Assembly (NCBI GenBank): GCA_030603365.1
Contig: JAUVXV010000004.1
Location: forward strand, 280,976-344,975
DNA: 64,000 bases
Direction of reading: 5' to 3'
From: Candidatus Heimdallarchaeota archaeon
GTDB lineage: Archaea; Asgardarchaeota; Heimdallarchaeia; Heimdallarchaeales; Heimdallarchaeaceae
The position numbers and the translations under genes were made by a program. Below the pieces are notes generated by a model. The model was given only the letters and a program-made list of their open reading frames with translations. It did no database searches and was not told where the DNA came from. This document shows, in pieces, positions 25,586 through 63,221 of this stretch (the first letter of the stretch is position 1; every line of letters begins with the position of its first letter).

Positions 25586-26659
25586 TTGTGTATGACCATT
25601 GAGGATAAGGTAAAATTAGTTGTTAAAAATACTGAAGAAGTAATTCTTGAGTCTGAAATACAAGAAATGCTAGAAAGAAAGAAAACACCTAAAACATATA
25701 TTGGCTTTGAATTATCTGGTTTAGTTCACCTAGGAACTGGAATTGTGTGTGGCAATAAGCTTAAGGATCTTATTAAAGCAGGTTTTGAAACAATTGTGTT
25801 TTTAGCTGATTGGCATAGCTGGATAAACAACAAACTTGGTGCTGATATGGAAAAAATCCAGCTCGCTGGGGAATATTTCAAAAAAGCTTTCGAGTCTGTT
25901 GGTGTTAAAGGTTCAAATGTGAAATATATCTGGGGTTCAGAGTTAGTAGAAAAGATTACTTATTGGGAGAAAGTAGTAAGAGTAGCTAAGTCTAATTCAT
26001 TAACTAGGATGCTTCGTACTCTCCCAATTATGGGTAGAAAGTCTGAAGGCGAACTTGAATCAGCATTCCTGTACTATCCTGCAATGCAAGTGGCAGATAT
26101 TTTTGATATGGAGATTGATTTAGCATATGGAGGTATGGATCAAAGGAAAGCTCATATGCTTGCTCGTGATACTGCAGAGAAATTAGGAATACCTAAGCCG
26201 ACGTGCATACACACTCCACTTCTAACTGGATTGCAGGGATATGGTAAGAAAATGGATGCTGAAATATTGCCGGATTTATCTGATCAAATTGATGTCAAGA
26301 TGTCCAAATCAAGACCGGAAACCTGTATATTTATCCATGATTCCGAAGAAAAAATTAAGGAAAAGCTAAAGAAAGCAAACTGTCCTCCTAAACAGGTAGT
26401 AGCTAATCCTGTAACAGAAATAGTTCAATATATTTTCTTCGATGCACTTGACGAATTTAAGATAGAGAGAGAAGAAAAATTTGGAGGAGACATGTCCTAT
26501 CAATCATTTGATTCTTTTAGACAAGATTATGTTGAAGGGAAAATTCATCCTCAAGACCTCAAGACCAATGTTGCTAGAACACTTAATCAACTCTTAAAAC
26601 CTTCAAGAAGTTATTTTGATAACCATGAGGATATTATTGAGGAAGTGAAAAAGCTTTAA
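25586..26659 (+). CDS. tyrS: Tyrosine--tRNA ligase (archaeal/eukaryal type)
   Basis: YIGFELSGLVHLG, ADWH, YPAMQVAD, GGMDQRK, KMSKS. Confidence 0.95.
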   Translation: MCMTIEDKVKLVVKNTEEVILESEIQEMLERKKTPKTYIGFELSGLVHLGTGIVCGNKLKDLIKAGFETIVFLADWHSWINNKLGADMEKIQLAGEYFKKAFESVGVKGSNVKYIWGSELVEKITYWEKVVRVAKSNSLTRMLRTLPIMGRKSEGELESAFLYYPAMQVADIFDMEIDLAYGGMDQRKAHMLARDTAEKLGIPKPTCIHTPLLTGLQGYGKKMDAEILPDLSDQIDVKMSKSRPETCIFIHDSEEKIKEKLKKANCPPKQVVANPVTEIVQYIFFDALDEFKIEREEKFGGDMSYQSFDSFRQDYVEGKIHPQDLKTNVARTLNQLLKPSRSYFDNHEDIIEEVKKL

Positions 26660-26723
26660 CTTGTTTTCTTGTGCATGAAATAGTAAATGACAAAAAAGTT
26701 CAATACAGAAGTAAACAGATGGA

Positions 26724-26950
26724 ATATGCCTTTATCGAGGACTTTCTAGAGATGGCGTTTGCTAACAAGGAAAGAAAGTGCAAATAAAAGGCAAAAGACT
26801 GCCAACGGGCTCCTATGGAGTAGAGTGGAACTCTACACAATGAAGTAAGGGCAACCCTGGTGGACAACAGTTGCTCCTGAGGAGCTCAACTAACTGATAT
26901 GGGAACATCCCTAAAAATGATGTTTAGAGTTAACCTCAGGGGCATTATAT
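26724..26950 (+). ncRNA. Candidate structured non-coding RNA of unknown family
   Basis: GC-enriched intergenic island. Terminal stem ATGCCTTT..GAGG / CCTC.AGGGGCAT plus several internal hairpins; the G-U pairs favour the + strand. Confidence 0.6.
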
Positions 26951-27010
26951 CTCATTTTTAAGCGCAATCAGAAAAAATAAATAACAATTCAATAAATATC
27001 CAGTGTTTAT

Positions 27011-27088
27011 GGGGCAGTGATCTAGCCTGGTTATGATGTCTCGCTCACACCGAGAAAATCCGCGGTTCAAGTCCGCGCTGCCCCACCA
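27011..27088 (+). tRNA. tRNA-Val(CAC)
   Basis: GGGGCAG acceptor stem, anticodon loop CT-CAC-AC, GGTTCAAGTCC T-arm, encoded CCA. Confidence 0.95.
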
Positions 27089-27117
27089 TTCTAATACTAA
27101 GATTAAAGGATGATAAT

Positions 27118-28098
27118 ATGCAAGATAATCCTCCCCTAGAACCTTATACATTCGTTGATTTATTTTCAGGAGCAGGAGGATTTAGTCTTGGTTTTGTCCA
27201 AATGAAATTCAAGGATATGTTAGCTTTAGAAAAAGATGAAACAGTAGCCAAAACGTACAAAATGAATTTTCCAAATTCTAAAGTCCTTGTTACAGATATA
27301 AGAAAGATTCACAGCCTTGAGATAATAAATAAAATTGGAAGTAATGTTGATGTGCTCTTAGCATCACCTCCCTGTGAACCTTTTACTTCAGCTAATCCCA
27401 GAAGAAAAAAAACACCATGGGAACGATTTTATGAAGATCCACAAGGTGATTTAATATTCCACGCAATTAGACTCATAGGTGACTTGACGCCTAAATTCTT
27501 TGTTATAGAAAATGTTTTTCCGATTGCGGAACAGAATGCAAGAAATATCCTTCAAGAAGAATTTAATTCTGTTGGTTACGATAAAGTTTTTTTTAATTAT
27601 GTATCTGCAGAAGAACATGGCTGCCCCAGTATAAGAAGGAGAGTTTTCATATCAAATTTAAAATTTCAACTACCATCTCAAAAGAAAATCTCTGTTAGGA
27701 GGGCAATTTTTGATTTACCACCACCTAATCTTCCTAACGATTATGAACATCATTTTACATTCCCTTTTGCTAAACAAGCAGAACGCAAAGCATTCAAAAT
27801 ACAGAAAGGAGATGCAGCAGTCCATTTCAAAAGCGCAAAAGGGGAAAAGAGAAACTGGATAAAACTTGATGAAGATAATATCGCCCCAACAGTAATGGGA
27901 AAATCTAGATTTATTCACCCTACAGAAAATCGTCCATTAACAATTCGAGAACAAGCAAGATTATTGAGTTTTCCGGATGATTTCCATTTCTCAGGGTCTG
28001 TTGAAGAGATGTTTAATCAAATTGGAGAATCAGTTCCACCTGTAATCTCCCGAAAAATAGCTGAGATAATTAGAAATAAGATTCAAAACAAAAAATGA
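27118..28098 (+). CDS. Orphan C5-cytosine DNA methyltransferase
   Basis: DLFSGAGG (I), SPPCEPF (IV), ENV (VI), RRRVF (VIII), REQARL and QIGESVPP (IX/X). Confidence 0.92.
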   Translation: MQDNPPLEPYTFVDLFSGAGGFSLGFVQMKFKDMLALEKDETVAKTYKMNFPNSKVLVTDIRKIHSLEIINKIGSNVDVLLASPPCEPFTSANPRRKKTPWERFYEDPQGDLIFHAIRLIGDLTPKFFVIENVFPIAEQNARNILQEEFNSVGYDKVFFNYVSAEEHGCPSIRRRVFISNLKFQLPSQKKISVRRAIFDLPPPNLPNDYEHHFTFPFAKQAERKAFKIQKGDAAVHFKSAKGEKRNWIKLDEDNIAPTVMGKSRFIHPTENRPLTIREQARLLSFPDDFHFSGSVEEMFNQIGESVPPVISRKIAEIIRNKIQNKK

Positions 28099-63091: not shown

Positions 63092-63221
63092 TGGTGAGCC
63101 TGGCCGGATTTGAACCGGCGACCGACAGATTGCTCCACGAGAAATACTCGTATAAGAGTCTGCTGCTTTAGGCGTTTGCTGATACCTCAGTTCAAACTCT
63201 ACCTAACTGAGCCACAGGCCC
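63092..63221 (-). tRNA. tRNA-Lys(CUU) with two introns (31 nt in the D-arm at 22/23; 22 nt canonical at 37/38)
   Basis: Exons 63221-63199, 63167-63153 and 63130-63092 give a 77-nt cloverleaf with CCA; both junctions form bulge-helix-bulge motifs. Confidence 0.92.

Follow-up and report, generated by a model that had tools for sequence, protein, structure and literature searches.

The DNA considered here is an island of some 225 nucleotides (nt) at positions 26724-26950 of a 64,000-nt stretch of the genome of Candidatus Heimdallarchaeota archaeon (contig JAUVXV010000004.1, positions 280,976 to 344,975, of assembly GCA_030603365.1); we call the whole of that stretch the window, and all positions given below are counted along it. 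The island is flanked by the tyrS open reading frame (ORF; 25586-26659) and by a gene for tRNA-Val (27011-27088), and itself contains trivial ORFs only. It is modestly enriched in GC (0.435 at 26700-26899 versus 0.31-0.38 in the flanks), and its single-sequence fold on the + strand reaches -67.1 kcal/mol, with a z score of -2.44 against shuffled sequences (-1.72 on the - strand). These values bear out a first-pass annotation, made from the letters alone, that had described a structured, non-coding, GC-enriched island between the two genes; its assignment of the DNA to an Asgard archaeon is likewise borne out, the nearest named relatives of the TyrRS protein (67-84% identity) belonging to Ca. 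Heimdallarchaeota/Heimdallarchaeaceae.

We propose that the island encodes a box H/ACA guide small RNA (sRNA) with three hairpins, numbered 1 to 3 from its 5′ end, which is the Heimdallarchaeaceae counterpart of the RNA known as Pab40, Pf7 or Afu4 (HgcG); we put the probability of this reading at roughly 0.88. The RNA belongs to a known class, and represents neither a new class of RNA nor a new mechanism. The proposal rests on computation, namely conservation, covariation of three hairpins, motif anatomy, complementarity to predicted targets and the presence of the partner protein genes; from these we infer the transcript ends, the assembly of a ribonucleoprotein (RNP) and the pseudouridylation of ribosomal RNA (rRNA).

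Conservation and fold of the RNA

Using blastn, the stretch was found once in each of 23 of the 24 same-genus genomes, at 74-91% identity. A covariance model (CM R1), built from 21 sequences of the genus on RNAalifold's own consensus and scoring 273.7 bits at the locus itself, gave full-length matches in 29 of the 30 other genomes of the family, covering all five of its genera (127-293 bits). Among 16 genomes of the order that belong to other families, blastn gave no match and CM R1, with strict filters, a single weak one; in a phylum-wide sample, weaker matches of 21-36 bits were obtained in three other Asgard families (among loci L074-L080).

The minimum free energy (MFE) fold of the single sequence includes a long terminal helix, whereas RNAalifold, unprompted, drew three separate hairpins and no closing helix. 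Pairs were counted on an alignment of 27 sequences to the model, with a bias towards the model's structure: in it, 96.5% of the cells of the three-hairpin structure are paired and 21 of its 50 pairs vary at both partners. Not one of 500 shuffles attained any of the five measures used, and in controls where the partners were slid by 1-3 columns, pairing was 40-55% and the covarying pairs numbered 2-8. Every hairpin has covarying pairs in its lower, its upper and its apical stem. Two short helices that RNAalifold drew as closing the pockets show no covariation, as is expected for guide strands. Conservation and covariation, both of which the first-pass annotation had proposed as checks, thus came out positive, and its choice of the + strand also holds: conserved pairs often alternate between U-A, U-G and C-G, and the promoter-like motif, the boxes and the T-run (described below) all fit that strand.

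H/ACA anatomy and predicted 23S rRNA targets

All three hairpins have the parts of an archaeal H/ACA hairpin: a lower stem, invariant pocket strands that do not covary, an upper stem and a kink-turn (K-turn; Table 1). The 3′ GA of the K-turn is present in 27 of 27 sequences in hairpins 1, 2 and 3 alike, and the 5′ A in 27, 26 and 27 of the 27; hairpin 2 has UGA on its 3′ strand throughout (27/27). The 5′ G is kept in 24/27 sequences in hairpin 1 and in 27/27 in hairpin 3, while hairpin 2 has G in 18, U in 6 and A in 3. Eleven of the twelve G and A positions are therefore invariant or nearly so, the exception being the 5′ G of hairpin 2; the 2b.2n position tolerates such variation in some K-turns. 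Each K-turn also has a 3-nt bulge on its 3′ strand and a closing first C-stem pair, kept in 26-27 of the 27 sequences. At the level of sequence, all three hairpins thus carry a K-turn above an upper helix of 5-6 base pairs (bp), and binding of L7Ae to each of them is predicted.

The box 3′ of hairpin 1 is ANA in every one of the 27 sequences (ACA in 12, AUA in 8, AAA in 7), and that 3′ of hairpin 2 is ACA in 26 and AUA in one. Directly after the 10-bp stem of hairpin 3 the triplet is AUU in 13, AUA in 7, ACU in 3 and ACC in 2 of the 27 sequences; one genus reads U-ACA, and in one genus the box position is base-paired within a longer (14-bp) stem. Box-to-guide distances are 14 nt for hairpin 1, 15 nt for hairpin 2 and 15 nt for hairpin 3 (15-16 nt over the several forms of its box). 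Muller et al. 2008 derived experimentally, for guides of this kind, an H2 helix of 5-6 bp, a distance of 14-15 nt from the ANA box to the target U, and the ANA box itself (PMC2377435); the upper-stem lengths, distances and boxes of this RNA fit those rules (PMC2377435), except for the box of hairpin 3. On our reading of Majumder et al., a degenerate last box would be tolerable.

The weaker matches in other Asgard families, read by eye, retain the hairpin 1 guides UCGAGG / GCAA followed by ACA, as well as the hairpin 2 guides GGGCUC / GUCAACCC, again followed by ACA. The 5′ strand of their hairpin 2 is much longer, and one copy (L076) seems to have two hairpins before its T-run.

The 23S gene of this genome ends before helix 69 (H69), and so all three targets were read from relatives, in twelve 23S sequences of the family. 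Sites were numbered by reference to Escherichia coli 23S, on which the numbering was checked, the coordinates of its record being +2 from the conventional ones. Wherever they are assembled, the 23S sequences of the family are identical at the sites of hairpin 1 and of H69, and likewise in the A-loop except for a U/A difference. On these sequences, bipartite complementarity flanking an unpaired U-N was found computationally for all three hairpins, the best complementarities being located at H69, the peptidyl transferase centre (PTC) region and the A-loop.

The guides of hairpin 1 pair with UUGC-UA-CCUCGAU over 4 + 7 bp, which would place the target U at the position of E. coli C2496; 20 of 1000 shuffled guides match the observed pairing. 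The guides of hairpin 3 pair with UAAC-UA-UGAGCU in the loop of H69 over 4 + 6 bp, with E. coli U1915 as the predicted target. A strict search for full-length pocket pairing by hairpin 3 found nothing in 16S or 23S, and flexible scans that took in the flanks of the locus gave inconsistent matches; H69 emerged only with the top bases unpaired. The guides of hairpin 2 pair with GGGGUUG-UUC-GCCC in the A-loop over 7-8 + 4 bp, which 7-33 of 1000 shuffled guides match. Here the target is most likely U2554, or else U2555; U2554, within an unpaired UUC, is favoured by the 15-nt rule together with the observation that, among unpaired U's, the modified one is the most 5′ (PMC7075261). U2586 may be considered as a weaker alternative for hairpin 2, since it is matched by 5 + 1 + 4-6 bp with a mismatch, and contiguous pairing there is not significant.

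The 23S sequences themselves gave some further observations. The position of the highly conserved E. coli U2555 is A (GUUGUACGCCC) in L033 (genome G016), L034 (G020) and L070 (G041), three family genomes from two genera; the eight remaining 23S sequences of the family in which the site is assembled have U. The 23S genes of L033 and L034 are 4235 and 4428 nt long, versus 3382 nt in G003, with about 680-870 extra bases upstream of H69 that represent an intron or a large expansion. In the genome that carries the window, the 16S gene is found about 8 kb from the 23S gene on the same strand of contig C8, 16S and 23S being unlinked.

This genome also encodes the proteins that such a guide would need: Cbf5 (415 bits, the cut-off being 238), Nop10, Gar1 and two proteins of the L7Ae family, all four protein types scoring above curated cut-offs. 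In the mechanism that we propose, the sRNA would be transcribed from a BRE/TATA promoter (BRE, B recognition element) of its own and would end at an oligo-T run; L7Ae would bind the K-turn of each hairpin, and Cbf5-Nop10-Gar1 its lower stem and ANA box, both by extension from what is known of the family. The two internal-loop strands of each hairpin would then base-pair with the 23S rRNA sequences that flank an unpaired U, and Cbf5 would isomerise that U to pseudouridine, at the 2496 position for hairpin 1, at A-loop U2554/U2555 for hairpin 2 and at H69 U1915 for hairpin 3. By analogy with known guides, RNP assembly and pseudouridine formation at these 23S sites may both be expected.

Weighing the assignment

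At gathering score, Rfam gave three tRNAs only for the whole window. In E-value mode over 26600-27100, the model RF00064 (HgcG/Pab40) matches 26675-26952 (+) along its full length (1-276), with 40.0 bits and E 1.2e-9. Only the more permissive local scan brings out this match; a whole-genome search of this genome with RF00064 gave no match at E <= 1. Full-length matches to the same model, of 36-50.5 bits, were obtained in four other genera of the family. In the RF00064 alignment the pocket strands of Pab40 stand opposite AUCGAGG / GCAA, GGGCAACCCU and GUUA of this RNA, so that its CGAGG, AACCCU and GUUA pocket strands face those of Pab40. Because the score is sub-threshold, we file the RNA as a divergent relative or orthologue candidate of RF00064, and not as a member by Rfam's criterion. 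The first-pass annotation had offered a candidate novel Asgard non-coding RNA, to be abandoned on a significant hit to a known Rfam family; nothing at the locus reached the gathering score, and with a full-length match that is sub-threshold and significant, together with the H/ACA anatomy, the unannotated, conserved non-coding RNA gene stands and the novel class does not. Full-text searches of the literature turned up no description of H/ACA guide RNAs from Asgard archaea.

Several points weigh against an H/ACA guide with three working hairpins. The RF00064 score lies below the gathering threshold (40 versus 77 bits), and contig C8 breaks off within the genome's 23S gene, just 5′ of H69. Other points concern hairpin 3: its box is AUU here and not ANA, which is the weakest point of the anatomy; its match to H69 holds only if the variable base at the top of both pocket strands stays unpaired; and 97 of 1000 shuffled guides do as well, so that alone this match is only marginally above chance. 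Hairpin 2 has an upper stem with a conserved weak middle and an ambiguous target; its guide is also unchanged in the two closest relatives and in another genus, where A stands at position 2555. Finally, the one contig from an RNA library (see below) could derive from DNA, and contigs cannot show transcript ends.

One rival reading keeps the H/ACA class but grants a guide function to hairpins 1 and 2 alone, hairpin 3 being an orphan, a structural or chaperone element, or a guide for a target other than rRNA. The degenerate AUU box, the weak target match of hairpin 3 taken alone (97/1000 shuffles) and the two-hairpin form that seems present in the other Asgard family represented by L076 would all agree with it. 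Against this, the GCUC and GUUA guide cores and the K-turn of hairpin 3 are invariant (27/27, five genera), its upper and lower stems covary, and its best rRNA match is to the H69 loop U, the same site as that of motif 3 in Pab40; we also count Majumder et al. against it. We regard this reading as improbable.

Still less probable, and in our estimation very unlikely, is a novel Asgard-specific structured RNA, riboswitch- or ribozyme-like, with a long closing helix and switching hairpins, as the first-pass annotation had pictured it. Such an RNA would suit the MFE fold, which has that terminal helix and exceeds shuffled sequences in stability (z -2.44), and the lack of any Rfam family at gathering score. 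Covariation, however, favours three independent hairpins over a closing helix, and the full-length RF00064 match is significant. What had been drawn as strands of terminal and alternative helices serves as lower stems and guides of the H/ACA motifs: the long terminal helix AUGCCUUU/AGGGGCAU, for example, is paired in 82% of cases, and hairpins 1 and 3 use its strands in their lower stems. The remaining helices first proposed fare no better in the 27 homologues, with pairing of 78% for UCUAGA/UUUAGA, 67% for UGGC/GCCA, 58% for GUUUGC/GCAAAU, 63% for GCUCC/GGAGU, 70% for GGGCAAC/GUUGCUC and 53% for AACAUC/GAUGUU. Only GUAGAG/CUCUAC survives (94% paired, 3 covarying pairs), as the apical stem of hairpin 2. 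The hairpin GCUCC-UGA-GGAGC, on which the idea of a switch was built, shows no covariation and is broken (U.C) in 8/27 sequences, without compensation. The closed fold and the switch were both rejected for these reasons, and nothing in the analysis pointed to self-cleavage.

The transcription unit of the guide RNA can be outlined from its borders. The conserved region starts abruptly at UGCCUUU and ends at GGGGCAUUAUA, after which comes the T-run. Upstream, the motif GACAAAAAA(G/C)UUCAA(U/G)A(C/U), or else a similar A-rich + UUAAAUA version, stands at the same distance from the RNA in all five genera, in surroundings that are unconserved among them; from the known archaeal BRE/TATA layout, it would function as a promoter. 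Downstream, most homologues have a T-run of 4-8, placed 8-15 nt 3′ of hairpin 3, which by analogy with archaeal oligo-T termination is a probable terminator. An A-rich + UAAAUAA motif about 27 nt 5′ of tRNA-Val, kept in relatives, looks like that gene's own BRE/TATA promoter. From the promoter-like motif at a fixed distance, the T-run and the separate tRNA-Val promoter we infer that the sRNA is an independent transcription unit. A processed element of the tyrS 3′ untranslated region, or a leader co-transcribed with tRNA-Val, is the least likely of the explanations considered, for although the order tyrS - RNA - tRNA - methyltransferase, all on one strand, is kept within the genus and, in part, outside it, a BRE/TATA-like motif lies 21 nt 5′ of the RNA, a T-run lies 3′ of it and the tRNA has a further promoter motif in front of it, and in other genera the upstream neighbour is not tyrS, yet the RNA and its promoter motif are retained.

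Expression was looked for in one run of a sediment metatranscriptome, which contained 5% of the sampled sequence words and where the sole contig over 26300-27300 was of 160 nt and left the flanks of the RNA uncovered; it consists of an adapter-flanked 144-nt insert that covers 26760-26903 with five differences, and we take it as a weak hint of transcription.

Two observations concern other genes of the window. The DNA methyltransferase-like ORF 3′ of the tRNA (27118-28098, +) remains syntenic with the sRNA in four genera, its identity being 52-71%. Far from the locus, at 63095-63221 (-), lies a tRNA of 42 bits in Rfam which was missed by ARAGORN; two insertions (34 and 24 nt) fall in the regions of its D-loop and anticodon, and it probably carries introns.

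Table 1. Features of the predicted H/ACA sRNA locus (window positions; guides, boxes and K-turns as predicted).
Feature	Sequence	Positions	Strand	Remark
BRE/TATA-like promoter motif	GACAAAAAAGUUCAAUAC (ACAAAAAA + GUUCAAUAC at 26690-26706)	26689-26706	+	ends 21 nt 5′ of first conserved RNA base
Predicted primary transcript, triple-hairpin H/ACA sRNA		~26727-26957	+	~230 nt; predicted ends
Hairpin 1		26728-26792	+	lower, upper and apical stems covary
Hairpin 1 lower stem	GCCUUU/AAAGGC		+	covariation
Hairpin 1 5′ guide	AUCGAGG	26734-26740	+	identical in 26/27
Hairpin 1 upper stem, 6 bp		26742-26747 with 26773-26778	+	covariation
Hairpin 1 K-turn	A-GA-G; C-AAG-GA-A	26748-26751; 26766-26772	+	GA conservation
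Hairpin 1 3′ guide	GCAA(AUA)	26780-26786	+	
Hairpin 1 ANA box	AAA here	26794-26796	+	14 nt from first 3′-guide base
Hairpin 2		26797-26865	+	
Hairpin 2 lower stem	GACUGCCA/UGGUGGAC		+	
Hairpin 2 5′ guide	ACGGGC	26805-26810	+	
Hairpin 2 upper stem, irregular, 6 positions		26811-26816 with 26845-26850	+	covaries at offsets 2, 3, 6, 7
Hairpin 2 K-turn	G-GA-GU; AC-AAU-GA-A	26817-26821; 26837-26844	+	
Hairpin 2 apical stem	AGAGU/ACUCU above 2-nt bulge, or GUAGAG/CUCUAC (alternative registers)		+	4 covarying pairs
Hairpin 2 3′ guide	GCAACCC	26851-26857	+	(G/U)CAACCC in 27/27
Hairpin 2 ACA box	ACA	26867-26869	+	15 nt from guide base C26852
Hairpin 3		26872-26944	+	all four GA positions 27/27
Hairpin 3 lower stem, 11 bp	UGCUCCUGAGG/CCUCAGGGGCA		+	5 covarying pairs
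Hairpin 3 5′ guide	AGCUCA(A)	26883-26889	+	
Hairpin 3 upper stem	CUAAC/G-U-U-(U)-A-G	26890-26894 with 26922-26927	+	5 bp + one bulge; 3/3 pairs covary
Hairpin 3 K-turn	U-GA-U; A-AAU-GA-U	26895-26898; 26915-26921	+	
Hairpin 3 3′ guide	(A)GUUAA	26928-26933	+	
Hairpin 3 degenerate 3′ box region	AUU AUA	26944-26949	+	not clean ANA in this genome
Oligo-T run, likely terminator		26955-26959	+	T-run 3′ of hairpin 3 in most homologues
BRE/TATA-like promoter motif of tRNA-Val, separate from sRNA	(A)ACAGAAAAAAUAAAUA	26968-26984	+	motif conserved in relatives

Comparison with known guide RNAs

The closest known system is the HgcG/Pab40/Pf7/Afu4 RNA (RF00064) of Thermococcales and Archaeoglobus, which has the same three H/ACA motifs in the same order, with a K-turn in each. 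Muller et al. assigned motif 1 of Pab40 experimentally to pseudouridine (psi) 2588 of Pyrococcus abyssi, in domain V, and motif 3 to position 2016, in stem-loop 69 (PMC2377435). Judging from sequence context and from the spacing to conserved pseudouridines, P. abyssi 2588 would be E. coli 2496, and 2016 would be U1915; if these equivalences are right, the predicted targets of hairpins 1 and 3 are the experimentally assigned sites of Pab40 motifs 1 and 3, and through them the guide specificities of RF00064 (2588 for motif 1, 2016 for motif 3) are found again in these two hairpins. Hairpin 1 has the CGAGG / GC.A guides in common with Pab40, along with the predicted motif 1 site (psi2588); hairpin 3 agrees with it in the GUUA 3′ guide and in the helix 69 target (P. 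abyssi 2016). In hairpin 2, AACCC recurs as the 3′ guide, and the upper helix is of low stability in both RNAs.

There are also differences. Unlike HgcG, this RNA is AT-rich, with much weaker stems, and its last box is AUU where HgcG has ACA. The 5′ guide of hairpin 3 is AGCUCA here and GGUUAG in Pab40, a difference that tracks the different H69 stem sequence of Heimdallarchaeaceae. For hairpin 2 we predict a target in the A-loop, whereas motif 2 of Pab40 acts at 1932; for motif 2 of Afu4/Pf7, Muller et al. propose and favour the equivalent of U2586 (PMC2377435).

An unannotated conserved RNA island is thus explained as an ordinary H/ACA guide RNA that had not been listed before. The Rfam model for HgcG, made from hyperthermophile sequences, misses its AT-rich Asgard homologues at gathering score, and the sequences reported here supply a seed for better annotation. 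The 27-sequence alignment and its model predict pseudouridines at the 2496 position, in the A-loop and in helix 69 of Heimdallarchaeial 23S rRNA.

Among other archaea, sR-h45 of Haloferax volcanii (PMC7075261) is likewise a multi-hairpin guide, with one hairpin directed to the helix 69 loop (psi1940/1942) and the other to PTC-proximal psi2605. The two RNAs are likened by description only, and sR-h45 (PMC7075261) differs in having two hairpins, in that the unpaired UNUN of its H69 hairpin modifies two U's, and in having no counterpart of the 2496 guide.

The comparison with eukaryotes concerns the sites more than the RNAs. Muller et al. noted that the equivalents of P. abyssi 2016 and 2588 are highly conserved pseudouridines of eukaryal large rRNA (PMC2377435), and the sites predicted here correspond to conserved eukaryal 25S/28S pseudouridines (PMC2377435), at least two of the three predicted sites being also pseudouridylated in eukaryotes. 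The finding therefore has a bearing on how much of the eukaryotic repertoire of small nucleolar RNAs (snoRNAs) already existed in Asgard ancestors. Eukaryotic H/ACA guides are built differently, from two hairpins with an H and an ACA box and with Nhp2 binding without a canonical K-turn, and they have no detectable sequence homology to this RNA. In yeast the guides of the equivalent sites are named snR191, snR46 and snR10. It is conceivable, though we think it rather unlikely, that the three-guide module is ancient, shared between Euryarchaeota and the Asgard archaea nearest to eukaryotes and ancestral to the eukaryotic snoRNAs for the same sites, and that it departs from the usual rules in Heimdallarchaeaceae: hairpin 3 may then work without an ACA box, and the retention of the hairpin 2 guide where 2555 is A may reflect a shifted or 'UNN' selection of its target.

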